Numbered from the stretch's first letter, positions 30,875-49,910 are shown. The stretch: DNA of 64,000 nucleotides from Pyrodictiaceae archaeon (GCA_027036135.1 JALVSY010000030.1:246222-310221), one strand, 5' to 3'. Notes: a model not told the origin generated them from the sequence alone. Numbers and translations: made by a program.

Positions 30875-30923
30875 ACCTCCACCCATCTACCCAGAGACTC
30901 ACGGGTGAGCAATTTGTGTCCCG

Positions 30924-32298: not shown

Positions 32299-32347
32299 TA
32301 GAGAATTAAAAATTGTATCTCTATAAGACTATGGCGTAGACTAGTTT

Positions 32348-33256
32348 TTATTCTTTGCCTAAATAATGCTTTATGAACTCGCATAGCTCTGTATAGTTAT
32401 TGAACTTTAGCCTTATTATGCTGTTGAGACAAGGGTTCTTCTCCGTTATTGAGAAATGTATGTATATGGGTTGCCCCCTTCTTACTAGGTTATAGACCCT
32501 TAGAGCTGCTACTGGTATATCTAGTTGCTTTCCTTGCCGCGGCTCTCTCGTAGAGATGCATACTACTTCGTTAAGCAAGTTTTTCCTAGCAAAGATTAGG
32601 AGAGCGTCTTTGAACGAGTCGCCGTTACAGCCTGGTATGGGCCCTTTTCTCTTGAACTCCAGGTTGAGGATTCCGTCAATATAGATGCAGTGTCTCCTAA
32701 ACGCGTTGACTATTTGTTCTGTAATGTTGATAAGATCTTTCTCGGTTGCTAGTTTGAGGTTGAATCTATTCATGTGGTTTATGTGGTTCCAGAGCTTATA
32801 TTTGGTGCACTCAATAACTATGTCACACCGGGTTTGTAGTGGTCCATAATAGCTCATGCAGTCCGTGAAAATGTCCAGGGCGTAGTGCATGATTGCTAGA
32901 GTGAGGATTTCGCCTGGTATATAAATCTCGTGGGTACGGGTGTATTGGGATAATGATTTCTTATTCTTGATCGTTGTTAGGAGGTCTAGGGCAACTTTAT
33001 ATCTCTCCTCTCGGGAAGCATGCGTGAACACACCGTTAACCACTATGTCGCCGAACTCGGCGAAAAGCATTAGCAGCATACATGCAAGCGAGAAGGGCCT
33101 AGGCTTGTGCTCGACACCATGTTCGCCACATACTTTATCTGCATCAGCCATGAGATTATTGAACTCTTCAACTCCTTCATCGCTTATTGCTCGTATCTCG
33201 GGCTCCTTACTACGGAGAAGAAGATAGACACGAATATGGGCATCCCAAGAGGGCAC
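32348..33256 (-). CDS. Putative Zn-dependent hydrolase, paralogue 3 (MPSWDAH / HYALD)
   Basis: GTG 33256 after SD GGAGG gives an MPSW..H start like the paralogues. Confidence 0.55.
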   Translation of the reverse strand: MPSWDAHIRVYLLLRSKEPEIRAISDEGVEEFNNLMADADKVCGEHGVEHKPRPFSLACMLLMLFAEFGDIVVNGVFTHASREERYKVALDLLTTIKNKKSLSQYTRTHEIYIPGEILTLAIMHYALDIFTDCMSYYGPLQTRCDIVIECTKYKLWNHINHMNRFNLKLATEKDLINITEQIVNAFRRHCIYIDGILNLEFKRKGPIPGCNGDSFKDALLIFARKNLLNEVVCISTREPRQGKQLDIPVAALRVYNLVRRGQPIYIHFSITEKNPCLNSIIRLKFNNYTELCEFIKHYLGKE

Positions 33257-33453
33257 AAAACAACCCTCCCGAGATAGTTTTACCCTGTGCGCTATATTCT
33301 TAATGATATGCAGAGTATTAGCAGTTTCTAGATCGCAATATCCCGTGTTGCCATGATACGGGGAGAAGTAGCTCATCTACATGCGTGAATACTACAAGGG
33401 TTAGGAATCGATTTTAGCTTCTGGAATGCATTTTCTCCCGTAGGTGCTGGTTA

Positions 33454-34392
33454 GTGGTTGAACGTAGTATAGAGGATGAGGTCATTCTTAATTGGGAACA
33501 GTTACCCGTATTCTATTGCCCGGTATGTGGCAAGAAGATAGTTGATTGGTGGGGATGGGGTGGAGAACCGCACGTTGAGCCGTGTCGTCATCTTCTGTTC
33601 ATTTATTTCTGGAATAGTGGCGAATTTCTATACATAAGGAATGATTTAGCAAAGGAGTTAGAGCAACGAGGGATTAAGCTAGAGAGAACCAGTACTGGTT
33701 TTGAACCTAAAGGTGATTTCGAGGACATCTTGGTCCTTTTGAGAGAAATACTTGCATTGACAAGCTTTGCTGTATTCACTCTTCATGCGCAGCAAGGGCC
33801 TCCGATGGCAGAGGAGTTTGTGGCTTCAATAGGCATAGAGTTTGTAGAGGAATCCGGGTATACATGGTTTGCACAAAGTATCACTAATATCATTAATGAG
33901 AAAACTATTGTATCTCTCAGAGAACTTGTATATAGTGGGAATCCCCCTAGAGACCCCGGCAAGGCTACACGAAAGGCCCTAGAATGGGTTAATAGGCATA
34001 TTATACTTGATGGTTGTGACAAGGACTCGCTTGTAGATATAGATGAGCCTCTTTATATAGTCAATGAGGGACGTGGCTCGTGCGGAGACATAGCCCTTCT
34101 CTTAGCTATTGCCCTTCTCTCAGCTGGTATTGAGCCTGTGTATATAGTCGACTACGATACTCTCAATGGCAGGTATGTAACAGTAGCTGTGGAGATTAAT
34201 GATAAGGCACTAGTATTAGATGGAGAGCCTATCGAGTGGAGCAAATACTTCAATAATGTTAACCTATTATCCGATGTACGTGTCTACAAGATAACACTAG
34301 GCAAGGAAAAACTAGGTAAGGTAGATTATTGTAGAATTGATAAGAACAAGGTCTTGCTACGCCGCTGTAGTCCCTTCTGTGGATGCCATTGA
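33454..34392 (+). CDS. Fusion of a CxxC/CxH N-domain and a transglutaminase-like domain
   Basis: YCPVCG..PCRH; GSCGDIALLL..GI..; the catalytic His position reads Tyr (GRYVTVAV...VLD). Confidence 0.65.
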   Translation: MVERSIEDEVILNWEQLPVFYCPVCGKKIVDWWGWGGEPHVEPCRHLLFIYFWNSGEFLYIRNDLAKELEQRGIKLERTSTGFEPKGDFEDILVLLREILALTSFAVFTLHAQQGPPMAEEFVASIGIEFVEESGYTWFAQSITNIINEKTIVSLRELVYSGNPPRDPGKATRKALEWVNRHIILDGCDKDSLVDIDEPLYIVNEGRGSCGDIALLLAIALLSAGIEPVYIVDYDTLNGRYVTVAVEINDKALVLDGEPIEWSKYFNNVNLLSDVRVYKITLGKEKLGKVDYCRIDKNKVLLRRCSPFCGCH

Positions 34393-34483
34393 TTAGCTAC
34401 GAGCTATGGACCATACTGGATCGAGATAATTAGAAGGTTTTTGTGGAATCTTTTCTTCTGATTTTCTCTGGGTAGGTGTTGTA

Positions 34484-34568
34484 GGGGCCCCGAGGAGCGG
34501 ATACCCCGCAGCCGAGGCTCTTCTTGCCCCTATGGGTCAGGGCGGCTCCGGACTCCTCGGGGATCCCC
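34484..34568. ncRNA. GC-rich structured hairpin element, copy 2 (probably transcribed on the - strand)
   Basis: Stem GGGG-CCCCGAGGAG / CTCCTCGGGG-AT-CCCC; TATA-like AAAAATATAGTAA ~30 nt upstream on the - strand. Confidence 0.6.
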
Positions 34569-34657
34569 TTATACATTTATTGCTCCGGGTATTACTATAT
34601 TTTTCTTTTAATTGTTAAATATTTGTTTAATTCTGTCGCCGATTCTCTATTTTAATT

Positions 34658-34750
34658 GATACCCCGCAGCCGAGGTGATAGTATGGGTCATGTATTTCCT
34701 GGCCTAGGTAAATCATGTTCCGAACTTTTCAATGCCCCTATGGGTCAGGG
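34658..34750 (+). repeat. Two 18-nt exact repeats of hairpin-loop segments
   Basis: GATACCCCGCAGCCGAGG at 34500 and 34658; TGCCCCTATGGGTCAGGG at 34525 and 34733. Confidence 0.9.
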
Positions 34751-35699
34751 TGGCGAGGAGGCTGGGGCGCGTTGTAGCATAGGGGTGTTGGCGAGTAATG
34801 GGGATGTGCAAAGACTGTTGGGGTTTGTTGGGGTTGGGATAGTGCCTGTTATGAGGAGGGACTTTGAGTGGGCTTGTGGTATGCTGGCGTTCCTGTATGG
34901 TGATGGTATTGTGGAGCTTCGGCGTGGGGTGAGGAGTTTCCGTGTTATGGCCAGGGTCTCTACTACTAGGGCGTCGACGTTGTTTGCTGCGGCTGCGCGT
35001 TACTTGGTGTTTGCGTCGGAGGGTAGCGGGGGCAGTGTTTATTGCGGCCATGGGCTGACTAGAAGCGATATGCGGTTCGTGGTGCCGCTCGATATTGAGG
35101 CCTTAAGGTACCTTGGCTTAGGCCATCTCATGGAGGGTAAGAAGGGTGTACGTAAGGATCTCTTTACGTGCTTGGATAACGATAAGGCGGTTATGCATGT
35201 TGCCGCGGGGCTGATAGATAGCGAGGGAAGTATATCCAAGAAGGCTTGGAGGATATACATAGGGATGAAGGATGCCGGGCTGCTAACTCGTCTAGGTAGG
35301 CGGCTGAGCGAGCTAGGTATCGAGGTGGTGCCGGCGCGGTTTCTAAGAAACGGCGTCATGATATTGGAGTTCAAGGGTAGTGAGAGGATAAGGGGTATTG
35401 TAGAGAGTGTTGTGAACCCTAGTAAGCGCGTACTAATGGCTAGGATGCTTATCGATAAGAGGACTCTGCGAAAGAAGATCTACAGAGTGCTTGTTAACGA
35501 GGTCCGCATAGTGGCTCGGAGGCTCGATGAGCCCGTGGGGGCTGTTGAGTGCCTTGAGTGCGCGAAGACGGTGCTAAGGGAGGCCCGCGCCCTAGCCTCC
35601 GCTGGAGACATGGAAGGGGGTTGTTCTATACCCCCTTCCACCTTTGTGGCTATATTGGTTTTATTTTTGCTAGTACTGGTTTGCTTGCCCCTATCTTGA
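34683..35699 (+). CDS. Free-standing double-motif LAGLIDADG endonuclease-like protein
   Basis: MLAFLYGDGIV and AAGLIDSEGSI motifs; ATG 34683 after SD GAGGTGA. Confidence 0.75.
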   Translation: MGHVFPGLGKSCSELFNAPMGQGGEEAGARCSIGVLASNGDVQRLLGFVGVGIVPVMRRDFEWACGMLAFLYGDGIVELRRGVRSFRVMARVSTTRASTLFAAAARYLVFASEGSGGSVYCGHGLTRSDMRFVVPLDIEALRYLGLGHLMEGKKGVRKDLFTCLDNDKAVMHVAAGLIDSEGSISKKAWRIYIGMKDAGLLTRLGRRLSELGIEVVPARFLRNGVMILEFKGSERIRGIVESVVNPSKRVLMARMLIDKRTLRKKIYRVLVNEVRIVARRLDEPVGAVECLECAKTVLREARALASAGDMEGGCSIPPSTFVAILVLFLLVLVCLPLS

Positions 35700-36687
35700 C
35701 TATTGCTTCCCCTGTTTCTAGGCTTAGTAGTGTCTTTGTGAGGGCTTGTTTTGCGCGTGGCTCTGGGGCTAGGTGCTCGGCTAGTCGTTTGGCTGATTCT
35801 GTGTCTGGTTGTTGGTGTGCTATGATTGTTTGTTGGTTGTGATGGAGTGGTGTTGGGTGGCTTGTTAGTGTTATGAGGCGTATGTTTTTCTTCCTTGCTT
35901 CGAGGAGGAGTTGTTCGAGTGGGGTTCCTGGCTGGGCTGTGTGGTGTGCTTCCTCTACTGCTAGGTAGAGTAGTGTTGTTGCTTGCTTGTTGGCTTGGAG
36001 GTGTGTGGCTAGTAGCTGGGTGTAGGTCTTTTTCTGGCTTGGTGTGAGGCCTGAGAGGTCTATTGTGTATATTTTGCCTGGCTGGGGGCTCGCTGGGTCT
36101 AGTTTCTTGTCTGGGCCTGGTTCTAGTTGCTCTAGTACTGGTTGTAGTGCCCATAGCCTCCTTAGTAGCGCGTGTGTGCTTGTCCTGGTGTCTGCTCTTG
36201 GTGTGTTCTCTGCTAGTTTCTCTAGCTCCTCTACTAGGCTTCTTACCCGCCTCCTTGTCCTGGCAAGGGTCTTTGCTAGTAGCTGGGCCATTAGGGGGCT
36301 TAGGGAGTAGTGGTCTCCGTGGACGCGTAGCGCTGCCTCGAGGGCTTCTACGACGCGGCGGGGATCGGGGTAGTTGAGCACGGGGACCCTTACCTGCCAC
36401 GGCTCTAGGGCGTGGCTCGCTATGTCGCTGTGCTCTCCCTCCCAGTCGAGGACCAGGACCGCGGCGCCTTGGCGGGCCAGGGCCCTTGCCAGGGTTTTCA
36501 AGGTGTGGGATTTGCCGCTCTCCGTCGCCCCAACTATGCCCACGTGCCCCGTGTCCCTCGGCACTAGTAGCTCGGCAGCGGCCTCCCTGCCTGGGGCCTC
36601 CACGACCCCTATGGGCTCCCCAGCGGCCACGGGGGGGCTGTGCCTAGTAGTGGCCACTCGAGGTGCCTGGGCAGCACCTTTGACCAC
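35650..36687 (-). CDS. HerA/VirB4-like (DUF87) P-loop ATPase
   Basis: HVGIVGATESGKS, VLDWEGE, LAVEEAH, EARK, L.TGEAIV. Confidence 0.85.
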   Translation of the reverse strand: MVKGAAQAPRVATTRHSPPVAAGEPIGVVEAPGREAAAELLVPRDTGHVGIVGATESGKSHTLKTLARALARQGAAVLVLDWEGEHSDIASHALEPWQVRVPVLNYPDPRRVVEALEAALRVHGDHYSLSPLMAQLLAKTLARTRRRVRSLVEELEKLAENTPRADTRTSTHALLRRLWALQPVLEQLEPGPDKKLDPASPQPGKIYTIDLSGLTPSQKKTYTQLLATHLQANKQATTLLYLAVEEAHHTAQPGTPLEQLLLEARKKNIRLITLTSHPTPLHHNQQTIIAHQQPDTESAKRLAEHLAPEPRAKQALTKTLLSLETGEAIVKIGASKPVLAKIKPI

Positions 36688-37320
36688 GCGGGGCCGGGGC
36701 TGCGACAGGGCTCGGGGATTGGTACTCTTAGGTCCCTTATCCTGCCCTCTAGGATGTAGCAGAACACCTTGTCCGGGATATTGTAGCCGTCGCTGGGCTT
36801 GGCTAGGAAGCGCTTCTCCGCCTCCTCGTGTATCCTAGCCACCCGTTCCTCGACCTCCCCGGGGGACCAGGTCTCGCCGAGCACATAGCTCCTCAGCTCT
36901 AGGCAAGTGGTGCAGGCGAGGAGGCTCGGGTAATCCAGGGCAGCCGACGCGACCATTAGGTGGAGTAGGGCGCCGTGCGGGGAGCCCTGGGTGCAGCCTC
37001 TTAGGCAGAGCTCGAAGCAACCAACACTACGCCAGCCACTACAGGCACCGAGGAGCCCCGTGGCGAACACTGCCCCGAGACCGCCCACGCCAAGAAACAC
37101 GTCGAGGCCGCCGAGCCCGATGCGCAGCACAGAGCCCGGAGACGGCCACGAAGAACACGCTCCAACACATAAACAACCTCGCCGAGACAACCCTCAACAA
37201 CCAACACATCCCCACAAACAACGCCACAAACCACACCACAGACAAAGAACCCAGACAACCCCCAGCGCCCAAAACACCCCCGGGCAAAAGCCACAGGGAA
37301 GGACAGAGAGCACGCCACAA
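36609..37320 (-). CDS. Hypothetical, possibly decayed membrane-associated partner(s) of the ATPase
   Basis: Overlapping ORFs 36609-37190 and 37039-37320; frame uncertain. Confidence 0.3.
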
Positions 37321-37590
37321 CTACACACAACAGCTCAGACCCGCTGCGGCAAAGCGCACAGACACATCTATCCGATAAGGCGTCATCATAGAGGATAGTT
37401 TTCTGAGAAGGCTTGGCAAACGTGCTTCTCTTAGGACTAGCATTAGCTAGGAAAGCTTCTGAGCAGTCCTTTGGAGGGCAGTATAGCGCTGCGCATGCAT
37501 ATATGGTGTTATCCAGGCGTAGTAGGGTTCGGGCCTTGTTGCATTACGAATCGATCAATTCTCTTTGGATATTAGAATAGGATGTAGTGC

Positions 37591-37691
37591 GGGGCCCGAA
37601 ACCCCGGGCGGCCCAGGGACGGCGTGACCGGGCTAGCTGAGCCTTGATGAGGGCTGTGTGAGCCGACCCGGCCCCCGGGGCGGGATGCCCC
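37591..37691 (+). ncRNA. Long GC hairpin with an apical K-loop (CTGA-GCCT-TGATGA); probable L7Ae-binding sRNA
   Basis: GGGGC/GCCCC, CCCCGGG/CCCGGGG and CGGC/GCCG helices; box D then box C at 37637-37650. Confidence 0.6.
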
Positions 37692-37959
37692 ATGTTATAA
37701 TACAGGGGAGGAGCTATGTATGTTTTATCTGAGTACCTTCATTACTCATAGTGCTTTCAGTGACAGACTCTGCTGATAGAATGTTCCCTATCATGTTTGC
37801 TCTATTGCCAGGTAATTGTTTGAACGAGGCTGTTACTCCGTCTCTCTATGACTCCAGGGCACACGTGAGCTGTGGAGCTCGTTTTGCCTTTGCGTCAAGG
37901 GCCTCCCGGGAGTCTTGACGTGGAGGATTAGGTTATAGGTAGAGGCTAGGTTTCTCTGT

Positions 37960-38027
37960 CCTTAAGGACGCTCGAACTCGGCCTCGAGTAAGAACTCCTC
38001 TATCTCTTCTCTGCTCGCCTTACTCAG
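37960..38027 (-). pseudogene. Fragment of a DUF104 antitoxin gene (paralogue of 23107-23172)
   Basis: Encodes LSKASREEIEEFLLEAEFERP vs LGKASREEIEELLLEAEFERL. Confidence 0.8.
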
Positions 38028-38160
38028 TTAATGGGTGGGATCTGGCGGCTTATTATATCGAATATTATGTGATGTGGGTTACCTTATATGATGGCATAAC
38101 GTTAAAAGATACTAGGCATAGTATATTGCTAGTCTATACTGGAGCTAATGGTGCTTAGAG

Positions 38161-38466
38161 TTGGCGACTGGTCTCTTGTATAAGAAGGCGTCTAGGGTGC
38201 TTGGTATCCGTGAAGATGTATTGGAGAGGGAGGCTCTGCGCCAGTACATCTTATCCGAGCTTAGGCGTGTTAGGCTAGAGTCTAGGCTCATTATGGCCCG
38301 TTATGGTGTATCAAGCATTGAGGAGCTTGACGAGAAGATTAGGCGCGGAGAACTAGAGGAGTCAGAGGTCTTTGAGGATCTTACTCGCCTCGATTATCTA
38401 CTCGATCGCGAGAAGAGACTGGAGAAGCTCTTAGAGGAATTGGAAAAGGGTGAATATGTGCAATAA
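38161..38466 (+). CDS. Conserved archaeal antitoxin-like helical protein (partner gene absent)
   Basis: YGVSSIEELDEKIRRGEL..E..EDL..LDYL. Confidence 0.65.
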   Translation: MATGLLYKKASRVLGIREDVLEREALRQYILSELRRVRLESRLIMARYGVSSIEELDEKIRRGELEESEVFEDLTRLDYLLDREKRLEKLLEELEKGEYVQ

Positions 38467-38596
38467 TGTGCAATACTTTGCTTTTGATAATGCACGGAAG
38501 CGTAGCTTTTCATTGGATTAAGAGAAGGGATCTTAATAATAGTGATTATTGAAAATATAGTATCTAACATATTAGCCAAAGATTTAGTAACATAAG

Positions 38597-39622
38597 CTAA
38601 GTTTTTAGCTTCGCTATATTTAATACCTTAACTATATCTTCTAGTTTTTCTGAAAATATATTTATAACTTGTTTTTCGTATTTGGTTCCTATAAGTCTAC
38701 ATAATTCGCACCGGCTATAGATGCGATACTTCTTGATTAAAGATTCTACGTCAACTTTAAGCAATTCATCTAGCACCGCATACGGCCCTTTAATACTTAA
38801 CCACCAATAGAAAGGATTTCGCCACATTCTCTTGATTATATCTAGTAACGGTTCTCTTGTAAGGTTACCGATAGTTACTATGCGAGCAGCCTTATCTCTT
38901 ATTATATGACCACAGCAAGCCATTACTGTTCCATCGGGATGTATTGCAAGCGTTGTTCCGATTTCATTGCAGGGCATTTTTAAGCGCAGAATTTGTTTAT
39001 TATACTGCTTTTTATCTATATCAGGCTCGATGGAAACACCTCTACCAAATCTATATACATAGTCCTCGATTATAGTTATATTTTCGCTTATTATATTATT
39101 TTTCTTTAAAAGATTAATTATATACGATCTATTTATTATATCGTTTTCACTATATCTTACAACAGCTATGGCAACTCGTAGTCCTTCCTCAATTGCGGCT
39201 CTAACGGCATTTACTATATTCCTTTCTCCACCATATTTTTCAAGCCATGGCTTGTGGAAATCATCATAACTAACATTAAGCTCATTTAGGCCAGCATTTT
39301 TCAACATAGACACAAGCTTTCTTGATTGTTCGATAGTGCTAGCCCACCACGCATTAGTAACAACCCTTACATTAAAACCCTTATCATATGCATATCTTAC
39401 TGCTTGAAGAAGCCTATTCAAAAACAATGTTGGTTCGCCACCACTTATAGCTATAGTATAAATCGATGGTATCTCTTCTGCATCGTCTACAGCTTTTTTA
39501 AATAATGACAGATCGATTACTGTACTATCTGATGGAGACGCTCTCATTGAGCAATGTTTACAAAAGAAATTGCACTTATACGTGAATATAATTGCCAGTG
39601 TACGAGGAATCATTTTAATCAC
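38597..39622 (-). CDS. Radical SAM/SPASM peptide maturase, YydG(EpeE)-like
   Basis: CNFFCKHC, SGGEP, TNAWWA, NVSYDDFH, C...IHPDG.V.ACC...CELC. Confidence 0.8.
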   Translation of the reverse strand: MIKMIPRTLAIIFTYKCNFFCKHCSMRASPSDSTVIDLSLFKKAVDDAEEIPSIYTIAISGGEPTLFLNRLLQAVRYAYDKGFNVRVVTNAWWASTIEQSRKLVSMLKNAGLNELNVSYDDFHKPWLEKYGGERNIVNAVRAAIEEGLRVAIAVVRYSENDIINRSYIINLLKKNNIISENITIIEDYVYRFGRGVSIEPDIDKKQYNKQILRLKMPCNEIGTTLAIHPDGTVMACCGHIIRDKAARIVTIGNLTREPLLDIIKRMWRNPFYWWLSIKGPYAVLDELLKVDVESLIKKYRIYSRCELCRLIGTKYEKQVINIFSEKLEDIVKVLNIAKLKT

Positions 39623-39624
39623 CT

Positions 39625-40164
39625 CTATGGCCTAGTTGATGCGTTATAACGTTTTATTTCGTTTAGTAATTCTCTATAGGCTTTTTCAATACCTGGATGA
39701 GATATGACAAATAGTTTATTATCATATGTTATTAAAAGAGCTTTTTCTTGCGGCTTATATATTATAGCTATACCGTGTTTGCCATTAGCGAATTTATACC
39801 TACCTAGAGCTAATAGACCAGGAATGGATACTCCGGCTTCCCGGAAAACAGGCTTTACTTTACTATATGGTACTAATGAAATATTAACTTCATTTATGGG
39901 TATTTTATATGTTCTTATATACTTTATTATAATATAGTTATTTTCAATTCCATAACTAACCCCAGAAGTAGTAAGTATCAATACGATGAATGGTATAAGA
40001 GCCAATATGATGATAAATATTATCATATTACGTAATGTTAAGTTGAGTAAAAAACCGGCTAGGATTCCTCCTATTATTGTAAATATAATTGTACCTATAA
40101 ATATGGGATTAAAGATAATTAATTTTAGTATTTTTATATGTGATAAACTATAAATAATCATCAT
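39625..40164 (-). CDS. Membrane protein with a bacterial PH domain
   Basis: Two TM helices, then Y.I....I.I...IP..E....G...PG...G.Y. Confidence 0.7.
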   Translation of the reverse strand: MMIIYSLSHIKILKLIIFNPIFIGTIIFTIIGGILAGFLLNLTLRNMIIFIIILALIPFIVLILTTSGVSYGIENNYIIIKYIRTYKIPINEVNISLVPYSKVKPVFREAGVSIPGLLALGRYKFANGKHGIAIIYKPQEKALLITYDNKLFVISHPGIEKAYRELLNEIKRYNASTRP

Positions 40165-40200
40165 CTAAGTCACCTTATAGACTTTAGCACAGCAGCACTT

Positions 40201-40536
40201 CTATACGACAAATTGCGAAAGCGAAACCACAGCTGCGACTATAATTGCTAATACTAATTTATAGGCAATTGCTATGTCTGTTGCAACACCTAGATTAGTG
40301 AAGACGCCAATATTAAGGTAACTTTTTACAGCAATTGCTGTATCTGTATAGAAGAATACATTATCGCTTCCAGGATCAATTTCGATAGGAGTATGTACGT
40401 AATCATCTTTTCTGGTTTTCTCTATTTTCTCAATACTTTTCATTATATTATTTGATATTGTTGCGTACGGGTCAACATCGTATTCTATGTTAAGGCAGTT
40501 AAGATAATTACACTCATGAGTCTTCATATTGCTCAC
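40201..40536 (-). CDS. Putative RiPP precursor peptide
   Basis: Charged N-terminal leader; hydrophobic C-terminal core with 6-residue N/D periodicity. Confidence 0.6.
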   Translation of the reverse strand: MSNMKTHECNYLNCLNIEYDVDPYATISNNIMKSIEKIEKTRKDDYVHTPIEIDPGSDNVFFYTDTAIAVKSYLNIGVFTNLGVATDIAIAYKLVLAIIVAAVVSLSQFVV

Positions 40537-41065
40537 TCACCTTGTCTGCGTGATTTTGTTTAAGTCGTTTCTTAGTATTTTCATGTATCTTTCTAATTTT
40601 TTCATATTATACTTTTGAGCATTTATTATTATTAAATCTATTATTTCTTTATTATCTATTATATTATCACTTTTTAAATATAAGGATATATCTTCTACAA
40701 GGTACTCTAAATCATCGGCATAGGCCACTACAACGCTTTTCTCGTTCTCACTTATAACGGCCAAGAATGGCTCTACTAAGCCATTTATTATACCTTTAAA
40801 TGTATACGTCTGCGTTCTTACACTCTTTAAAGTTTTGCCATGTTTACTTATGTAAGTTTGTGTCACAACATACATTAATTTATGTGTTTCAAAGCTGTAT
40901 TCTTTAATGGTCTTTATGTTTGTCGTGATCTGCAGCTCACTTAAATTTTGGGGATTCATACTTCTTGCAATGCTAAATACAGGCGATAGTAAATGCATCA
41001 AGGAGGTCAGTAGAAGGCCGCTTATAAACTTTCGTCTTGATATATATATATATATCTGTCAACAT
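40537..41065 (-). CDS. Tat-signal secreted protein, out of frame in an (AT)8 tract
   Basis: SD GGAG + ATG 41065; SRRKFI + hydrophobic stretch is in frame with ORF 40537-41001 but one base off from the ATG. Confidence 0.65.
41040..41055. repeat. (AT)8 microsatellite
   Basis: Read directly. Confidence 0.95.
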
Positions 41066-41366
41066 TATCACTCTCCGTTCGTCTCCAAGTGGTTTGAGCA
41101 TTTATTTAAAAGCGTTACTTATATATGTTTGTTAACTAGATTTCTTCTAGTAGAGCAAGTTATCTTTAAAAGAGGGCTACTGTGTAACGTAGACCTTTAA
41201 AGTGATTCACTTAGTAGGAATATAATATAGTATCTAATTTCAGAATTGCTTAAAATGCTAGCTGGCGCTACGGAACCATAGGTAAATGGTATAATATGGC
41301 TAAGAATAGCAGGAATCGCTAAATAGCTTTGTAATAGGTTCGTGAGGCATTAAGGATGGTGTATAG

Positions 41367-42311
41367 ATGGTGTTGCTCGAGATATATAAGTTGACGAAGA
41401 TATATGATGACCGTGTTGTTGCTCTCCGGGATTTTAGCCTTGCTTATGATAGGGGGTCTTCTATAATTGTTCTTGTTGGTCCTAATGGTGCTGGGAAGAC
41501 TACTCTTCTTAGGATTCTTGCAGGTCAGCTTAGGCCTACTAGTGGTACTGCTAGGGTGTTTGGCTACGACCTTGTTAGGGATGTGGATAAGGTTGTTGGT
41601 GTTGTAGCGTTTCTTCCGCAGGGTATTCGTGCGCCTTTCTATAACCTTACGCCCTGGGACTATATTGTCTCGTATCTCTTGATCCGGGGGTATAGTCTAG
41701 GGGATGCGAGGCGTAGGGCTAGGGAGATGCTTGAGCTTTTCTCGCTAGAAGAGTACGCATCTGTCCCTGTCTCGAAGCTTTCTGGTGGGACTGTGAGGAG
41801 GGCTTTGATAGCTTCCGTCTTGGCTGACGAGAGTGCTGAGTTGTTCTTGCTTGATGAGCCTCTTCCAGGGCTTGATCCAAGGTCGAGGATGATATTTTGG
41901 AGTGTTATTCGCCGTGTTGTGAGGGATGGACGGCTTGCTATAGTATCTTCTCACTATACCGAGGACTTGCCGCTGGTAGCTGACTATGTTGTTGTGCTTA
42001 GTAGGGGTAAGAAGATAGCTGAAGGAAATCCCAGTAATGTGATAAGAGATGTGCTAGGGCCTTGTAGCTATAAGGTTATAATAAGAAGTCGTTACTCTAC
42101 AAACGGTACAAGTATTGAAAGCTCTATAGATGCTTTGAGAGAAAGTAGTAATGGTGTTTGCCGATTTGTGAGATTGGGCGAGGATACTGTTATCGTGTAT
42201 GCTAGTAGTCCTCAGCATGTTGTTAGTGTTGCCGAGTATTATGGCCTTGATGTTGAGGTTGCACCGGTAGGCCTTGGCGATATAGTGCTGGCCCTGGGTG
42301 AGAGGGGGTGA
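41367..42311 (+). CDS. ABC exporter ATP-binding subunit
   Basis: GPNGAGKTT, LSGG, LLDEP, SSH. Confidence 0.93.
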   Translation: MVLLEIYKLTKIYDDRVVALRDFSLAYDRGSSIIVLVGPNGAGKTTLLRILAGQLRPTSGTARVFGYDLVRDVDKVVGVVAFLPQGIRAPFYNLTPWDYIVSYLLIRGYSLGDARRRAREMLELFSLEEYASVPVSKLSGGTVRRALIASVLADESAELFLLDEPLPGLDPRSRMIFWSVIRRVVRDGRLAIVSSHYTEDLPLVADYVVVLSRGKKIAEGNPSNVIRDVLGPCSYKVIIRSRYSTNGTSIESSIDALRESSNGVCRFVRLGEDTVIVYASSPQHVVSVAEYYGLDVEVAPVGLGDIVLALGERG

Positions 42312-43039
42312 GGAGGCAGCTTCGCTCCCTATTCGGTCTTCTATACTTCTACTCCATGGCGTACATCCTGCGCTCTCCGCTATCAGTGCCGTTACTCGTT
42401 TTCCGTATGAGTGTTTTCGTGATACTATTAACCCTCGTTGGTGGCCACGAGTACGCTGTCTATGCGCTCTCAGGCGCCCTCGTTGCCCTGGCCTTCGGAG
42501 CTGGTCTCTCACAATTCTCGGTTGATATTAACGCGCTTAGAGTCTCGGGTTATAGGTACATACTGCTTACTGCACCGTTAGGGCCGGCTACCTTCGCTAT
42601 TGGGACGGCTCTCGGTATGAGTCTCTTATCATTTGTAGGATTAACGGTGTTCTTCCTACCATGGTACTATATTTGTCACCCGGGGCTCCAGGGGGTTCTT
42701 GAGCTTGGATTGGTTCTTGCACTAACGTGGCTTATAGGGCTCTCAATAGGCTTCCTACTATCAATCCTTATTAGGACACCGCATGTGCTCTTCAACGTCA
42801 CGGACACTGTTTACGCGCTACTAGTTTACCTAATGCCCGTATACTACCCGATAGAGCTACTTCCTCAATCACTAAGACCGCTAACACTAATATCGCCAGC
42901 CACGCACGCTGGCATCCTTGTTAGAGAAATAGCAGTAGAAGGCCACATAGTATCCCCATTAAACATGTACGTCATCATAGTCGTTGCTGCAGCGTTACTG
43001 GCACTAATATCGAGGATATCTAAGTGGAGAGAAGCCTAA
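42308..43039 (+). CDS. ABC-2 type permease
   Basis: Six TM helices, PVYYP..LLP..L. Confidence 0.88.
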   Translation: MRRQLRSLFGLLYFYSMAYILRSPLSVPLLVFRMSVFVILLTLVGGHEYAVYALSGALVALAFGAGLSQFSVDINALRVSGYRYILLTAPLGPATFAIGTALGMSLLSFVGLTVFFLPWYYICHPGLQGVLELGLVLALTWLIGLSIGFLLSILIRTPHVLFNVTDTVYALLVYLMPVYYPIELLPQSLRPLTLISPATHAGILVREIAVEGHIVSPLNMYVIIVVAAALLALISRISKWREA

Positions 43040-43423
43040 TAAGCACATCACAAAAGCAGTAAATGCGTCGATTTCTCTTAGTTTTAAGCCTATTTAGAAA
43101 TACACCATAGGTGTATAATGTAATTAGTGTTCTTGCAGGAATTAGTAGCTAGTGTATGGCGCGGCATCTTCAAGGGAACATTGAAGTGCCTTGGCCTCGG
43201 AGAGTAAAACATATTGGAATCATAATAATTGGAAAAGAATTCTGTAAAGATTTCTTAAAGATTGGCTCCTGTCTAGGAGAAGGCTGGAGATAAGGATTAA
43301 GTAAAGAGACCTTGTTCGTGGGCGTGATGTTTCAAATAATACACGATTTAGATGCAAGGAATATGGCTACTAAGAGAGCCGGATAGGAGCTCTGCGATAT
43401 TGTTTTTAATCCTACTTTAGCGC

Positions 43424-44188
43424 CTATATCGGTGTTCTTGTTATTTGCTTTATTTTCTCTAGGATTTTTTGAATTGCTTTTCCTGCTGGTGCTTCTATGT
43501 GTATGTCTGCTATGCTTGTTATTGGTGTTTTCTCTATGTTTATCTCTATTATCTTGGCTCCGTTCTCCTTGGCTATTGTTGGTATTAGTGCGGCTGGATA
43601 GACTACGCCGCTTGTCCCTATTACTAGGAGTACTCTTGCCTCCCGTGCTAGTTGTAGGGCTTGTCTCCATTCCTGCTCTGGTAGAGGTTCGCCGAACCAT
43701 ACTACGTCTGGGCGTAGTAGTGCTCCGCAGCGTGGGCATCTTGGTGGTATTTCGCGTGGTGGTTCCCTGAAGACCACTCGGTGGCCGCACTTTGTGCATC
43801 GTGCTCGCCATATGTTGCCGTGTAGCTCTACTAGGCATTGTTGCCCGGCTTCGCGGTGGAGGCCGTCAACGTTCTGTGTTATGACGCATCTTAGGAGGCC
43901 TAGTTTCTCTAGCTCTGCTAGTGCTAGGTGCGCGGGGTTTGGCCTAGCCCGGGCTATGATCTCCATTCTCCAGCGGTACCACTCCCATACTAGGCGTGGG
44001 TTCCTCTCGAAGGCCTCGGGTGTTGCTAGCTCTTCTGGGCGGAAGCGCTTCCAGAGCCCGTCTCTGCCCCGGAATGTGGGGACACCGCTCTCCGCCGAGA
44101 CGCCGGCCCCGGTGAAGGCTACTGTCTCGCCGCGTGCCTTGAGTATGAGCCTGGCGGCCCTCTCCGCTAGCTCGTCTAGAGTCTCCAA
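43424..44188 (-). CDS. cobB: NAD-dependent protein deacylase (sirtuin)
   Basis: [45 protein letters not shown]. Confidence 0.96.
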
Positions 44189-44349
44189 CGCCCCTGGCCC
44201 CCAGGGGTAATCAAGATGTGTTTCACCGGGTATTAGGGGCTGGGCCTCCGCGGCGCCATTACCGCGTAAAAGCCCTCCCGGATGCCAGGGAAAGCATAGT
44301 GGTTTCTCCCGGGGAGGCGTGGTTTCCTAAGGGTGGAGGGGCTGGCTCG

Positions 44350-45006
44350 GTGATTATTCTTGGCCACAGGGCTAATACGCCGCGATGGATTCGCCGCTTC
44401 CTAGCCGAGGGAGCCGATGGCGTTGAGATGGATGTTTATTGTAGAGGTGGTGAGCTCTATGCGAGCCACTTGAGCCTCGTGGGGCGGGCGAGGCTGCTCC
44501 GGGAGAGAATAGCCTCGCTGCTCACCGGGCTACACCTTCTCGGCCCGTACCGGGCCAGGAACCTCCTAGCCCTCGTCCCCCAGGGCTCGCCGGTGATGCT
44601 TGACCTCAAGAGCAGGGTTAGCGAGGAGTGCCTCGCCGAGCTATCAGTGCTCGGCGAGAGCTACAAGGTCTATGTCTCTATACGAGACTATGACCTAGCA
44701 CCACGGCTCGCCGAGAAAGGGCTAAGCGTGCTACTCAGCATGGATCACCGCCCACTAGGGGTACTAGACGAGCTACGCGCAGCCAGTGCAGCCGGGGTAT
44801 CGATTAACAAGAGGTACCTCGACGAGGACCTAGCCAGGCTACTCCGCGGCCACGGCTACATAGTCGCGGCCTGGACAATTAATACAGCCGAGGAGGCGAT
44901 TAAAGTAAGCAGCATGGGGGCCGACATAATAGTCACTGATTACCCAGGGATTGCTAGGAGGGCGCTAAGAAGCCGAGCCAGCACCCCCAAGGAGGGGGAA
45001 TGGTAG
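44350..45006 (+). CDS. Glycerophosphodiester phosphodiesterase family protein
   Basis: GHRAN, GADGVEMDV, DLK, AWTIN, IVTDYP; GTG 44350. Confidence 0.85.
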   Translation: MIILGHRANTPRWIRRFLAEGADGVEMDVYCRGGELYASHLSLVGRARLLRERIASLLTGLHLLGPYRARNLLALVPQGSPVMLDLKSRVSEECLAELSVLGESYKVYVSIRDYDLAPRLAEKGLSVLLSMDHRPLGVLDELRAASAAGVSINKRYLDEDLARLLRGHGYIVAAWTINTAEEAIKVSSMGADIIVTDYPGIARRALRSRASTPKEGEW

Positions 45007-45109
45007 CCGGGCGGGGATTCGAACCCCGGTCACGGGGGTTCTCCCCACGGCCCCTGGGGGCCGCTAATGGGCCAGAGCCCCGCATCCTTGGCCGCTAGAC
45101 GACCCGGCT
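45001..45109 (-). tRNA. tRNA-Gln(CTG) with a 33-nt intron at 37/38
   Basis: AGCCGGG...CCCGGCT ACCA; BHB with CTCT/GGAG central helix. Confidence 0.95.
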
Positions 45110-45285
45110 ACCCAGGGGCTTCCCCAGGTAACTCATTACTACGTCTACCAGAGCCGGGGTTTTTTAGGCTTAGCTATGAAGGCGCGCTACTACACTAGTA
45201 TTATCGCTGATTAGCACCAGGCTCTTCGCTCCAGAGCCCCTTGTTCATGGAAGCACTGAAGTAGCTACTACCACCTATCTCTCAT

Positions 45286-45552
45286 TTGGGTCTTGTCTCC
45301 TTGCGCAGACTAGTAGCGTGGCAACAAGTCCTCGGAGACACAGATCCCGTAGTGGGCCTGCTAGCTCGCCACGGGTTCGGCGAGCTAGCTGCCAGCGTGC
45401 TCGCTAAGAGACTGCGACAACTCGCAGCACTATCTCTCAGCGATGATGAGGCAGAGGCCTACCTTGAGATACTATTACCTGGGGTTGATAAGAAGACATT
45501 GATGAAGGCATACGAGCTGGTGAAGAGAACCAGGGCCGCGCCGAGACACTAG
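45286..45552 (+). CDS. Hypothetical protein
   Basis: 88-aa ORF between two tRNAs; start uncertain. Confidence 0.45.
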   Translation: MGLVSLRRLVAWQQVLGDTDPVVGLLARHGFGELAASVLAKRLRQLAALSLSDDEAEAYLEILLPGVDKKTLMKAYELVKRTRAAPRH

Positions 45553-45650
45553 GCTCTTCCTAGCCCTGGACGAAAGAATGATAACCCCCAATGCTTAGCT
45601 AGGAGCAAGAATAACTCGGGGGCACACCCAAAGCCCCCCCCTTACGCGAT

Positions 45651-45769
45651 GCCGCCGTAGCTCAGCCCGGTTAGAGCGCCGGACTCATACGGGCGCCCCG
45701 GTCCACCGGAGTCGCCGGGGGCCCTGGGGGATCCGGTCGTCCCGGGTTCGAATCCCGGCGGCGGCACCA
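45651..45769 (+). tRNA. tRNA-Met(CAT), elongator type, with a 41-nt intron at 37/38 (45690-45730)
   Basis: GCCGCCG...CGGCGGC ACCA; CCGGA-CTCATA|intron|A-TCCGG. Confidence 0.95.
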
Positions 45770-45820
45770 CAAGGTAGGCCGGGAACCCCCTGGGCCCCTA
45801 CAATTCCTCTACCCGTTATC

Positions 45821-46741
45821 CTAGCATCCTTTGTAGGGGCTACGTATCCTCTGCTCCGCGATGTACTTAGCGAGGATAACCGCGTCCCTGGTCTCGGCTA
45901 CGTCGTGTGCGCGTATTATGTGGGCCCCGTTATAGACAGCTATTGCGGCAGCGGCTATGCTGCCCCATAGCCTATCTTCTGGGCGTTCTCGCCCAGTTAT
46001 GGCGCCTATGAAGGATTTCCGTGACGCCCCGACCAGTATGGGTTTGTTGAAGCTTCGTAGCACGTGTAGGTTCGCTAGTATAACTGAGTCCCACTGGTAC
46101 CAGGGCGGGTTCCTTGGCCTGAAGAACCCTATTGCTGGGTCAATTGCTATCTTCTCGTCGTCTATGCCGCTTCTCTTGGCGATCTCGATGCTCTCCCACA
46201 GGGCCTTCATGACCACTGCCAATGGGTTAGCGTTCTCGGGGACAAAGTCCTCGTGGGCAGCTATTATCACGGGTACACCGTACTCAGCTACAACGCGGGC
46301 CATCCCCTGGTCGGCCTTGAGGCCAGTAACGTCGTTGACGATGTCGGCGCCAGCTCTTAGTGCCTCCTCAGCGACCCGGGCAGAGAACGTATCGACCGAG
46401 ACAGGGGCCTTAACCGAGGTATTCTCCTTGATAATCCTGATCGCCGTCACGACCCTCCTAATCTCCTCCTCCAAGGGTATATCAGTCTCCTTGTAAGGAG
46501 CAGTAGAGCGGCCACCAACATCTATGAAGCTAGCCCCCAGCCGCTCAGCAGCCTCTGCACGCTCAGCTATCTCCTCGGCCCCCCGGGCCACGGAGCCCTG
46601 GTAAAACGACTCGGGGCTAACATTAATAACAGCCATAACCCTCGGGGGCTGGTCATCGCCTACAAGCACGCCTGCGATATTGGCCCTAATAGGCCTAAAA
46701 TAACTCCCAGTAACTGGCATCCCGGCCAAGACTTTTCCCAT
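45821..46741 (-). CDS. folP: Dihydropteroate synthase
   Basis: INVSPESF, DVGGRST.P, SVDTF, NDVTG, DPAIGF, SRKSFIG, RAHDV. Confidence 0.92.
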   Translation of the reverse strand: MGKVLAGMPVTGSYFRPIRANIAGVLVGDDQPPRVMAVINVSPESFYQGSVARGAEEIAERAEAAERLGASFIDVGGRSTAPYKETDIPLEEEIRRVVTAIRIIKENTSVKAPVSVDTFSARVAEEALRAGADIVNDVTGLKADQGMARVVAEYGVPVIIAAHEDFVPENANPLAVVMKALWESIEIAKRSGIDDEKIAIDPAIGFFRPRNPPWYQWDSVILANLHVLRSFNKPILVGASRKSFIGAITGRERPEDRLWGSIAAAAIAVYNGAHIIRAHDVAETRDAVILAKYIAEQRIRSPYKGC

Positions 46742-46821
46742 GTACTATAAGAGCTATGCCTAGTCCTCAGAGACTATAAAGGAAGTGCATTGGTACCGTG
46801 TTAGAGTATAGTGTGGCTTGC

Positions 46822-47292
46822 CTAAGCAGTAGCAGCTGACAGGGCCCGTGGCCTCTCCACGGAGCAGAAGACGCCGTCGCGTACAAGGTTCTCAACAAAT
46901 AAGCGGTACTCCTTGCGCCCAAGAAGATCAGCCATAAGCCCTGCACGCATCCATGCTGAGACACTCACACGGACCTTGCCCGGGCCCAGGCGCTCAACAA
47001 GAATCCTCATATAGAACTCGTACTTGGAGTCTGGCGTGCTCTCATAGATTATCTCTACACGGTTCCTCTCCGGCTTCCTCCTAACACGTAGCTTCACCGG
47101 ATAATACTTAGTCATGCCGAGCTTACGCCACCGGAAAACAACCTCGTAGACCTCTCCCTTCTCATCAAGCTTCCTAACGCGGTAAGTATACGGGCTAGCA
47201 GCGAAGAAGCTCACTGGGGAACATAGACAAGGGAAACATGCGGCAAAGTCGATATCCATCTTAGTGCTAAATTCATGCCTAAGAACCACCAC
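46822..47292 (-). CDS. SRPBCC/CoxG-like hypothetical protein
   Basis: Beta-rich body with a C-terminal helix; weak pattern. Confidence 0.45.
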   Translation of the reverse strand: MVVLRHEFSTKMDIDFAACFPCLCSPVSFFAASPYTYRVRKLDEKGEVYEVVFRWRKLGMTKYYPVKLRVRRKPERNRVEIIYESTPDSKYEFYMRILVERLGPGKVRVSVSAWMRAGLMADLLGRKEYRLFVENLVRDGVFCSVERPRALSAATA

Positions 47293-48370
47293 TGCTACAC
47301 CCGTGCTGAAGGAAGTACTTTTGTATCATATTTAGAGCTAATTTGGGCACGAGCACCAAAAACTATAATAACAACTGAAAATAGAAATAAATAATATAGG
47401 ATATTGTTAATTATATGTCTAGGGCAATAGTCTTGCATATTTATCTATGTTTATACTCAGGCAACTATATATTAAGAATTATATGCTATATCAAATAAAG
47501 TAGACATTCTTCTATAACTAGTAGCGACTCCTTATATATTTTCTATAAATAAGAATTTATCAATATATATGTACTAATAAATTCTAAGTAAAACACTACT
47601 GCTGATGTTTTTAATGAGTTCTCAGCGTAAAGAAAATGTACTCCTAAACCACGGCAATATGGAATAAGAAGCCCCGAGCCCGCAAAGTAGAGCAAAGAAT
47701 CTATGGCGGATTTATAACGGTCAAGGCATCCTCAATAATTGCTAGAGGATCTAATTTGTCTAATAGCTATTTAGGTATTGATTTCCTCTAGAAAAGAAGG
47801 CTCAGACAGGGCAAATACTTCTATTAGACCTCATTAGGCTCCAGAAAAGATATGGGATGACATATATCCGCGGCTCAACGAACCCACAGCTATACTGTAA
47901 CTTATATTACGAATCTTTTAGGATAAATGGTATTCTGTTTAAACTAAAGCCTAATTCAGTCTATAAACTCGACGTAAGATTTACCCCTCAAGATAATGGT
48001 GAAAACAAAGTCTATTTATACTTTGTTAGCTGAAGTATAGCATCGCTCTACAACATATTCATACCAAAAGACGAAGATAATCCTGGCTAGTCGGTAGGGT
48101 ATTCTCGAGGCTTATACAGCCGATGAAAAAGGAGCTACTCGAACTAGGTGGCAATACCGCTTTCAAGATAGAGGTAATCAACTGGCTAATAAAGTCATAG
48201 ATTTGGAAGACATGGTCTCATGCTTACGAATATGAGGGATAAATCATGAACACTACTATAATGTATCATATAATATATGGAAAAAGATGTAGATAAAACT
48301 ACTTAGGCAAGGAAAGGTATGCATAGAATATCAAGTAGGGAGTAAGCATTATACTTATGGTGAAAAAGGT

Positions 48371-49087
48371 TTGGTAAATCATACTACTGGTAAATCCTTT
48401 TATTCTGTGCTTGTCGTAGCTGTGGTAATAGTGGTTATTACTTCGATTCTAATAGTGTTCTATAACAAGTACGCCCACAGTAGCATCTCTTACTCGTCTC
48501 AACAAGCTAATACTAGCATAGCTACGAACAGTAGTATCTCCTCGCCTAGTACAAGTAACGAGTACCTAAGAATTTCCGGTGTGAATAGACACGAGTATGC
48601 CCTGGCTCTTAAGAATCTCAAATATATCCTAAATGAGGCCAGAAAGATGTATACTGAACTCGTTGAGAAAAATGAACCCTACATGATGAGCTTAGACAAC
48701 TTCTCCGAGATATTTATTGAAAAAGCCTCAATTATAAACGAGACCACTATTCGCATAGGCAACGAATCATACCGTTATGTCGTCTTTATGGTGTATAATA
48801 ACAAGAATAAATTCAGTTTCAGCCCCTCAAGGCTCGTGGTCAACGATATCGAAGTCCGGCTCTTGCCGAGAAACAAGTCAGTGACCTACACGGGTGGATT
48901 ACCCTATCACTACTTAATCAAGTATGAGGACAAGGTGTGCAGTGTGAAGTTCATTGAGATCGGTTTTGTCATAGCTACTAATAACTTGTTAGGCTCAACG
49001 ATTAAGCCGTGCAATGGCATTTATGTGGTGAGGCTATCAGTGAACAAAGGCGAAAATGAGGTATGGCTTGTCTTAATAAAACGGTAG
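48371..49087 (+). CDS. Membrane-anchored extracellular protein with a Ser/Thr linker
   Basis: N-terminal TM helix, S/T-rich stretch, several N-x-S/T sequons. Confidence 0.7.
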   Translation: MVNHTTGKSFYSVLVVAVVIVVITSILIVFYNKYAHSSISYSSQQANTSIATNSSISSPSTSNEYLRISGVNRHEYALALKNLKYILNEARKMYTELVEKNEPYMMSLDNFSEIFIEKASIINETTIRIGNESYRYVVFMVYNNKNKFSFSPSRLVVNDIEVRLLPRNKSVTYTGGLPYHYLIKYEDKVCSVKFIEIGFVIATNNLLGSTIKPCNGIYVVRLSVNKGENEVWLVLIKR

Positions 49088-49206
49088 GATATCTTCAGAT
49101 ACTAATTATCTAGCTAATAGCTTGGTGTCTTTGCTCAACGCGACGCTCCGGAGCCAGGGGTAACTTGAGTATCATATATAGGTAAAACTACTTAGAATTA
49201 CTTTTA

Positions 49207-49572
49207 TTATATATTCTTTTCTGATTTAATCTCTTCTAGGACTTCGCGTAGTACAACTGCGTTATTATGTTCTCTATCTTTAGCTGCGTAAAGAAGAGTT
49301 ATTACTCCATAGTGTTTCTCAAGCTCTATGAGCTTTCTGAGTAGTTCCTCTTTGTTCTTGAGTTCCTCTCTATACCTTTTCTTGAACTCTTCCCAGCGCT
49401 CCGGTTTATGCGAGAACCATTTCCTTAGCTCATTACTGGGAGCTATGTCTCTTAGCCAGAGATCTATCCTTGCCTTACTCTTAGGCAAGCCTCGCGGCCA
49501 TAGTCTATCAACTAAAATCCTATATCCATCGTCCTCGGAAGGAGGATCATATACCCTCTTCAGCTTTATCAA
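49207..49572 (-). CDS. DUF488 (YeaO-like) protein
   Basis: IKLKRVYD...[13 protein letters not shown]...APS.ELRKWF.H; TTG 49572. Confidence 0.92.
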
Positions 49573-49910
49573 TACATTACACCTATAACACCATTTCCCG
49601 CTAATACTTAGAAAATATTCCTCCCCACGAAGCAGTGTTAAACTCCACAAAGTGTTCGTTTCAAGCATACAGCACAAGGCAATGGATATTTTCCTCATCA
49701 ATACAGTACCTAAGGAATTTGACAGTAATGGTTGCCCCGCTCTGCTAGTGAATAAGAAAAGAAGATACAAAGGTAGCGACGATTATAAGAAGATATCATC
49801 CTTTCTCTACACTAGAAATTTTTCTCCTAGTTTAAGCCTCATTGGTTCTTCCCCGGATTGCTTAGGTGCTCTTTTGCAGGTTTCTCTCTATCTTGTTTAT
49901 GCTGTAATAA

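Follow-up and report, generated by a model that had tools for sequence, protein, structure and literature searches.

The epipeptide system of Bacillus subtilis (yydFGHIJ / epeXEPAB), in which a radical S-adenosylmethionine (SAM) enzyme epimerizes a short peptide, also comprises a protease and an ATP-binding cassette (ABC) pair. In its enzyme EpeE (YydG), Cys223 is described as the hydrogen donor that quenches the C-alpha radical (PMC13012085), and the epipeptide product is reported to act on membranes (PMC8326336). Polytheonamide B carries Asn-derived D-residues at positions 15, 21, 27, 33, 39 and 45, with side-chain hydrogen bonds described along its beta-6.3 helix (PMC3887386), while pleckstrin homology (PH) domain membrane proteins are reported to be required for export of enterocin DD14 (PMC8657885). 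Here we analyze an AT-rich four-gene cassette on the minus strand (38597-41101) of a 64,000-nucleotide stretch of DNA from a Pyrodictiaceae archaeon, hereafter the window. Arranged head to tail, its genes encode a protein with a putative twin-arginine translocation (Tat) signal that we call X, a peptide of 111 residues, a membrane protein with two helices, and an enzyme of the radical SAM/SPASM type. On sequence comparison we propose, with moderate confidence, that it is a cassette for a peptide made on the ribosome and modified after translation (RiPP), in which the enzyme would epimerize residues in the core of the 111-residue peptide.

A first-pass annotation of the same DNA had described an AT-rich operon diverging from an ABC-2 pair, and all four minus-strand open reading frames (ORFs) and the ABC pair are present as it described them. 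The GC content of the cassette is 0.31-0.34 (38500-41000) vs 0.45-0.66 in both flanks. The peptide starts directly after the stop codon of X, and the enzyme gene starts 2 bases past the stop codon of the membrane protein. The features are as follows, with the predicted local distance difference test score abbreviated as pLDDT:

38597-39622, minus strand: radical SAM/SPASM enzyme, 341 residues, YydG/EpeE-like (Pfam, NCBIfam and PDB profile match)
39625-40164, minus strand: membrane protein, 179 residues, of a bPH_5-related family (homologues flank the enzyme gene; model pLDDT 93)
40201-40536, minus strand: putative precursor peptide, 111 residues, with a charged leader of about 57 residues and a hydrophobic core (52-member peptide family)
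40537-41040, minus strand: X, Tat-signal protein (listed ORF 40537-41001 with TTG at 41001; in-frame SRRKF begins at 41040)
41040-41055, no strand: (AT)8 tract, length-polymorphic, separating the Tat motif of X from the ATG frame upstream (Tandem Repeats Finder)
41056-41101, minus strand: short ATG-started frame running into (AT)8, out of frame with X in the window assembly (42-residue ORF 40973-41101)
41367-42311, plus strand: ABC ATPase, divergent neighbour, probably not a dedicated part (Pfam ABC_tran, 76.7 bits)
42308-43039, plus strand: ABC-2 permease, divergent neighbour, probably not a dedicated part (Pfam ABC2_membrane, 42 bits)

The enzyme matches Pfam Radical_SAM with 58.1 bits and SPASM with 29.1 bits. 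The best of its 45 NCBIfam matches is TIGR04078 (rSAM_yydG), which aligns over the full length with 96.5 bits, the next family reaching 47.8. A profile made from an alignment of 35 relatives finds the EpeE/YydG chains 8ai1 and 8ai6 (8AI1-8AI6) in the PDB with E=7e-39 over profile positions 1-302, and the next match has E=1.5e-9, so that EpeE is by far the nearest characterized relative, in agreement with the earlier proposal of a YydG-like enzyme. Residues C17, C21, C24, C218, C236, C237, C305 and C308 are invariant in the 35 sequences. The first three form the CxxxCxxC radical SAM cluster motif, and the profile alignment places C236-C237 on EpeE C222-C223, C218 on C206 and C305/C308 on the C-terminal CxxC (EpeE numbers are chain positions minus 25 by our own count). 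Two motifs that had initially suggested the kinship, TN.WWA and SYD.FH, occur exactly, as TNAWWA at residue 89 and SYDDFH at residue 118, and have the EpeE counterparts N-G-F-W and S-Y-D-E-Y-H.

A quick maximum-likelihood tree of 75 rows covered the enzymes of the window and of a second cassette in the same genome, 21 genome loci, 23 of the 55 proteins from the search for relatives, P0086-P0198 sampled at every fourth full-length protein, as well as three YydG genes and a single outgroup. Genes that are split or partial (L009, L018, L028, L033-L037, L039) and duplicates (L017, L021) were omitted. The window enzyme falls into a clade of 24 rows (clade A, support 95) that is sister to one of 17 rows (clade B, joint support 98). 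Canonical YydG (3 rows) and clade A lie together within one 62-row clade with support 97. Hidden Markov models (HMMs), PDB profile and tree thus agree in grouping the enzyme with a peptide epimerase and not with non-peptide enzymes. By sequence, it is YydG-like in kind and lies outside the curated TIGR04078 family, since canonical YydG is placed elsewhere in the 62-row clade. Among 1.84 billion proteins, 1,075 cluster representatives match the enzyme profile at E<=1e-30, so the wider enzyme family appears to be large and mostly unstudied.

The second cassette of the genome (G000 contig C7, L006 7478-9841) encodes X, a peptide of 86 residues, a radical SAM enzyme 49% identical to that of the window and the membrane protein. 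It is likewise AT-rich, has no ABC transporter beside it and lies between NAD-biosynthesis-like genes and a 452-residue ORF on the other strand. Scans for further relatives yielded 79 loci from genomes and 80 from metagenomes. Iterated HMMs searched against ORFs from 114 sources (L006, L008-L039, L105-L184 and a portion of the window) matched 63 X proteins, 65 membrane proteins and 63 peptides, 52 of the latter distinct. When loci were assigned to the two clades solely by the best BLAST match of their enzyme to five reference enzymes per clade, the same models found the peptide at 41 of 52 clade A loci vs 0 of 23 clade B loci with at least 400 nt upstream. The corresponding figures were 33/39 vs 0/19 for X (at least 1000 nt upstream) and 34/50 vs 0/24 for the membrane protein (at least 700 nt downstream). 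A search of the neighbourhoods of related enzymes had been proposed as a check, and homologous loci do carry a homologous peptide. Taken together, the core idea of the first-pass annotation survives, at the level of sequence, the tests that it suggested: the enzyme groups with a peptide epimerase and its relatives stand beside relatives of the peptide.

The order X, peptide, radical SAM enzyme, membrane protein recurs in Thermoproteota and in thermophilic Bacillota, and the named hosts include Caldicoprobacter, Desulfothermobacter, Desulfotomaculum, Pyrobaculum, Vulcanisaeta and a Thermoproteaceae archaeon. At many archaeal loci an Rce1-like (CPBP) protease follows the cassette, and Bacillota loci contain extra PH-type proteins and a fused ABC exporter; such fused exporters and CPBP proteases would fit peptide export or immunity. 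Desulfothermobacter acidiphilus (L029) has two precursor genes (4345-4578 and 9362-9601) on either side of an ABC exporter and three PH-type membrane proteins. Within the order of the window, only two of 151 sampled genomes match the enzyme at E<=1e-20, that of the window (G000) included; the second match is a 526-residue ORF with 35% identity. The cassette was probably acquired horizontally.

The peptides of this family begin with a leader motif composed of an aromatic or aliphatic residue, any residue, L/I, D/E, two further residues, V/I and D, as seen in the alignment. A variable linker, often ending in E-P, leads to a hypervariable core of 35-55 residues in which Ala, Val, Ile and Gly predominate, interspersed with Trp and Tyr. 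The window peptide matches no Pfam or NCBIfam family at cut-off; its sole match at E<=0.1 is Pfam T4_y05I_C with 17.2 bits vs a cut-off of 27, and its leader matches none of the nitrile-hydratase-like families of NCBIfam at E<=0.1. There is no cysteine in the window core, and therefore thioether chemistry is ruled out here.

The residues on which a periodic core had been proposed are exactly as named (N59, D65, K71, N75, N81, D87 and K93), as are the repeats TDTAIAVK at 64 and TDIAIAYK at 86. The window core contains five pairs of strongly polar residues at lag 6 and 0-1 at each other lag from 2 to 9 (p=0.001, 100,000 shuffles). For the ladder of four, N75-N81-D87-K93, p is 0.012 at lag 6 and 0.11 over any lag from 2 to 9. 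The paralogous peptide, which the first-pass annotation had not seen and which is hence an independent test of lag 6, has D-N-N-N-H at an exact spacing of six (p=0.002 for the ladder of five, p=0.023 for pairs). Neither an alpha helix nor a plain strand would account for a spacing of six that lacks two and four. The N-x5-N ladder that was ascribed to polytheonamides is found in polytheonamide B, as its Asn-derived positions show (PMC3887386). The parallel is real but remains a resemblance only.

X had been read as a Tat protein. In the window, SRRKFISG, a hydrophobic stretch and SIARS lie in frame upstream of its listed start, and in both copies the frame extends upstream through SRRKF(I/L)SG, a hydrophobic stretch and (S/T)ARS up to a stop codon. 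Among the listed archaeal homologues whose N-terminus is complete, most begin at an ordinary start codon 15-25 residues ahead of the RR motif; one X homologue matched Pfam TAT_signal, weakly (E=0.12). The model of X (pLDDT 85) shows a six-stranded sheet backed by two long helices. Its comparison with the PDB by Foldseek gave nothing at E<=0.001 (best BPIFA1, E=0.07, template-modelling score 0.26) and the ESM Atlas gave no usable match. X matches no Pfam or NCBIfam family at cut-off, the matches of peptide and X at E<=0.1 being only to unrelated families far below cut-off, and its relatives in 15 clusters are all named hypothetical protein and carry no Pfam domain. A complex prediction of X with the peptide scored 0.03 vs a mark of 0.32, which we take as evidence neither for nor against an interaction.

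Directly upstream of the Tat motif lies an (AT)n tract, of 8 units in the window (41040-41055) and of 7 in the paralog (L006 7465-7478), with ATG codons upstream in other frames. Contigs from four public runs differ from the window in tract length by 0 (X3), -2 (X1), -2 (X5) and -4 letters (X4), where X1 is possibly the source sample of the window DNA and hence not independent. X4 belongs to another study and shows 18 substitutions relative to the window over 2.9 kb, with indels only at the (AT) tract and at 41219, a position upstream of the ATG at 41101. When tract lengths were computed through, this ATG was joined to full-length X by 6 or 9 AT units only, and 5, 7, 8 or 10 units led to an early stop; for the paralog, 5, 6, 8 or 9 units keep the frame and 7 do not. 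Since only 6 or 9 units are in frame, the X4 allele would be 'on' and those of the window, X1, X3 and X5 'off' for signal-bearing X. This is the layout of a slipped-strand switch, and we regard the tract as a candidate contingency switch, read from contigs and not from within-population data. An ATA start for X, or a TATA-box role of the tract, could also account for the arrangement.

The membrane protein had been described as a PH-domain protein, which applies to its family: 13 of 18 family members match Pfam bPH_5 (PF10882) at E<=0.01, the best with 2.1e-23, and the archaeal homologue in L015 reaches 24.5 bits vs a cut-off of 22.5. The window protein itself, however, has no Pfam match at E<=0.01 or at E<=0.1. 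A profile-profile alignment of its subgroup with the strongly bPH_5-matching one by hhalign gives a weak link (E=0.0036, probability 9%). The model (pLDDT 93) consists of two helices followed by a beta-sandwich closed by a C-terminal helix, and the best Foldseek match in the PDB has E=0.08, with nothing at E<=0.001.

In the mechanism that we infer, the 111-residue peptide would be the substrate, its leader bearing the conserved motif of the family. The enzyme would cleave SAM at its CxxxCxxC cluster and abstract C-alpha hydrogens from residues of the core rich in Ala, Val and Ile, and Cys237, the counterpart of EpeE Cys223, would return a hydrogen from the opposite face and thereby convert L- into D-residues. 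The modified hydrophobic peptide may end in a membrane and act there. The bPH-type membrane protein could have a part in export or self-protection, by analogy with the PH-domain proteins of enterocin DD14, and X would be exported via Tat, its production possibly switched by the length of the (AT)n tract. The ABC-2 transporter would be an older resident of the genus and not a dedicated part. The comparisons themselves establish homology, the invariant residues, the recurrent gene order, the peptide family, the periodicity and the polymorphism of the tract; the pairing of enzyme and substrate, epimerization and its number of sites, the functions of X and of the membrane protein, the fold and any biological activity are deductions from them.

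Several observations weigh against this reading. The window enzyme, with 96.5 bits, and that of the paralog, with 97.2 bits, both miss the TIGR04078 cut-off of 300, whereas true YydG genes (n=3) score 434-466, and canonical YydG sits on its own long branch (1.74) outside clade A. Because the enzyme is so far below the cut-off and in a separate clade, its activity could differ from that of YydG. Moreover, characterized EpeE is reported to epimerize only two residues (PMC13012085), and action at many sites here would be speculative. Some peptide subgroups have conserved core cysteines, which hints at other chemistry there. The periodicity claimed for the precursor reaches significance in the two copies of this genome but does not extend to the family: among 52 interrelated sequences z exceeds 2 in 8 at lag 6, in the same number (8/52) at lag 2 and in 0-2 at other lags. 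Neither a leader protease nor a dedicated exporter was found in the window cassette among its ORFs or by the Pfam scan. The Tat reading of X is suggested by the in-frame motif and its conservation in the paralog and homologues, but no ATG, GTG or TTG precedes the motif in the X frame of either the window or the paralog. Finally, the radical SAM gene is broken up into a pair of ORFs, overlapping or adjacent, in Pyrobaculum oguniense (L028 5965-6934), a Woesebacteria record (L033 1021-2014) and a Pyrobaculum genome (L037 5998-7004), both metagenome-assembled, and Vulcanisaeta distributa (L039 5998-6983), and because of these splits the system would appear dispensable and often decaying. A conserved programmed frameshift was considered for the splits and discarded, as the one-base gaps lie at different alignment columns in L037 and L039; independent decay or sequencing error is more likely.

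The alternative that survives best keeps cassette and substrate and changes the reaction, the enzyme introducing a carbon-carbon or carbon-heteroatom crosslink or altering a side chain. SPASM/twitch radical SAM enzymes perform many peptide chemistries, clade A is distant from characterized YydG, and the cores are rich in Tyr and Trp and in some subgroups contain conserved Cys. However, the only characterized relative within reach is an epimerase, the counterpart of its hydrogen-donor cysteine is invariant in all 35 sequences, and the cores as a whole share no conserved aromatic residue or cysteine. We thus consider another modification possible but unlikely.

It is rather improbable that the peptide is a resident small membrane protein of the producer, with a membrane segment matured for its own use, for example in membrane function at high temperature, and with X and the PH-type protein as partners. 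The core would be long enough for a membrane span, window and paralog are devoid of a dedicated exporter or protease, and thermophiles make up most of the named cultured hosts. By contrast, a conserved leader followed by hypervariable cores is the usual signature of peptide natural products, and the sporadic distribution (2/151 genomes of the order, G000 included), the loci with several precursors or with ABC exporters or CPBP proteases as neighbours, and a composition foreign to the host genome likewise point away from a resident function. That the cassette is a decaying, silent remnant with X out of frame and nothing made is very improbable: X has no in-frame start in the window allele and the enzyme gene is split in four related genomes, but all four ORFs of the cassette are intact and tightly spaced, both paralogs keep the arrangement of repeat and Tat motif, and one independent assembly (X4) has an in-frame (AT)6 allele with so few other differences from the window (only 18 substitutions in 2.9 kb, and indels only at the tract and 41219).

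The preferred reading, epimerization of the peptide core by a YydG-like enzyme, can be extended to a ribosomal counterpart of gramicidin and polytheonamide in hyperthermophilic archaea. The EpeE-type enzyme would then epimerize alternate residues of the core of about 50 residues, which would fold into a beta-6.3-type helix with a six-spaced Asn/Asp ladder and form a membrane channel. Its exit would be aided by X, a Tat-exported carrier of new fold that would be phase-varied by (AT)n slippage between start codon and twin-arginine motif. We put this full scenario forward as speculative and doubtful.

The divergent neighbours of the cassette form an ABC-2 exporter pair by profile, with 76.7 bits for ABC_tran and 42 bits for ABC2_membrane, both above the cut-offs. 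The first-pass annotation had counted this exporter as a component of the system, which the comparison with other genomes did not bear out. A complete genome of the same genus (G066) encodes an ATPase with 55% and a permease with 65% identity, has no such radical SAM enzyme and lacks the cassette, and nothing else within 9 kb on either side of its ABC pair matches the window. The window permease has no relative in any other locus searched, and the ATPase shows generic similarity only. We treat the pair as a neighbour because it occurs in G066 without the cassette and because its permease has no relatives at other loci; from these comparisons it is probably not a dedicated part. Kinship with the ABC pairs of clade B was considered and rejected for the same generic ATPase similarity and lone permease. 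The pair may nevertheless have been co-opted, as ABC transporters of some kind stand beside many related cassettes.

In clade B, the sister clade, genes for an ABC ATPase and a permease usually come after that of the enzyme, and the hosts are Thermogemmatispora, Hydrogenibacillus, Halorussus, Thermoplasmata and Bathyarchaeia (L016-L027, L030-L032; e.g. L016 5247-7952). Their precursors, of 120-175 residues, combine a structured N-terminal part with a hydrophobic tail, short and preceded by a G-Y-G-x-P motif. Four of eight tested show weak similarity to nitrile-hydratase-like RiPP leader families, none reaching the cut-off (best E=3.8e-5, 23.7 bits vs 40).

A perfect 14-nt direct repeat, AATATAGTATCTAA, occurs at 38554-38567 and 41224-41237 and brackets the window cassette. 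It was rejected as an insertion scar, with about 0.1-0.2 chance matches estimated in the AT-rich stretch and no equivalent pair at the paralog. No tRNA gene that could be an integration site was found in 30000-50000. Elsewhere in the window, 34656-37400 is a GC-rich stretch (up to 0.66) with many long overlapping ORFs on both strands, adjoined by a 345-residue ORF with a P-loop motif (GKS).

To our knowledge, no radical-SAM-modified peptide has been characterized from Thermoproteota. In the open-access literature, supplements aside, we found no description of a YydG-type epimerase in archaea or of the cassette, and the accessible parts of two surveys of archaeal gene clusters (PMC12144867, PMC13635244) contain no description of the cassette family. 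The locus is not a single case but belongs to a family of archaea and thermophilic Bacillota with precursors of its own, a Tat-signal protein that matches no family or fold in the searches above, and PH-type membrane proteins, and among the roughly 1,075 enzyme clusters studies have been limited to the Bacillus branch. Should the enzyme indeed epimerize many residues, there would be two independent routes to long D/L peptides. A specific fold is suggested by the spacing of six, which both copies in the genome share, and the (AT)n tract offers a candidate contingency switch in an archaeon.

The epipeptide system remains the nearest point of comparison. Both enzymes have one extra iron-sulfur cluster and can be aligned over their full length (E=7e-39); they share the cluster cysteines, the CC pair with the hydrogen-donor cysteine and the motifs N.(F/W)W and SYD.(Y/F)H, and in both systems the enzyme gene adjoins a short peptide gene. 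They differ in that the window enzyme scores far below the TIGR04078 cut-off and belongs to a separate clade. The window precursor has 111 residues compared to 49 for EpeX (a length inferred from the construct EpeX18-49 in PMC13012085), is unrelated in sequence to any curated precursor family, and has a core far longer and more hydrophobic than that of EpeX. Instead of the partners known from Bacillus, the cassette contains a Tat-signal protein and a PH-type membrane protein and no protease, and its host is an archaeon.

With the proteusins and polytheonamides (precursor PoyA, epimerase PoyD), the window peptide shares a long hydrophobic core rich in Val, Ala, Ile and Gly and polar, Asn-type residues six apart, at 15-21-27-33-39-45 in polytheonamide B as described (PMC3887386) and at N75-N81-D87-K93 here, with D-N-N-N-H in the paralog. 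A likeness of leaders is confined to the sister clade B, whose weak matches to nitrile-hydratase-like leaders all stay below cut-off; the window leader has no such match. The enzyme, with its second cluster of SPASM type, also resembles EpeE and is not of the single-cluster PoyD type, and the cassette has no methyltransferase or hydroxylase genes. DdE and DdF of enterocin DD14 are small PH-domain membrane proteins within a peptide-toxin cluster as well, and their deletion is reported to stop export (PMC8657885). They match PHb2 (YdbS/YdbT type), whereas the window family is related to bPH_5 and its role here is assigned by analogy; in addition, enterocin DD14 is leaderless and unmodified, whereas the window peptide has a leader. 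Gramicidin A, finally, is likewise a peptide rich in Val, Ala, Gly and Trp, and its alternating D/L residues are described as producing a beta-6.3 helix that forms a membrane channel (PMC9241976). Its 15 residues are assembled by a non-ribosomal synthetase, whereas the window peptide is far longer, and an alternation of chirality within the latter is no more than a hypothesis.

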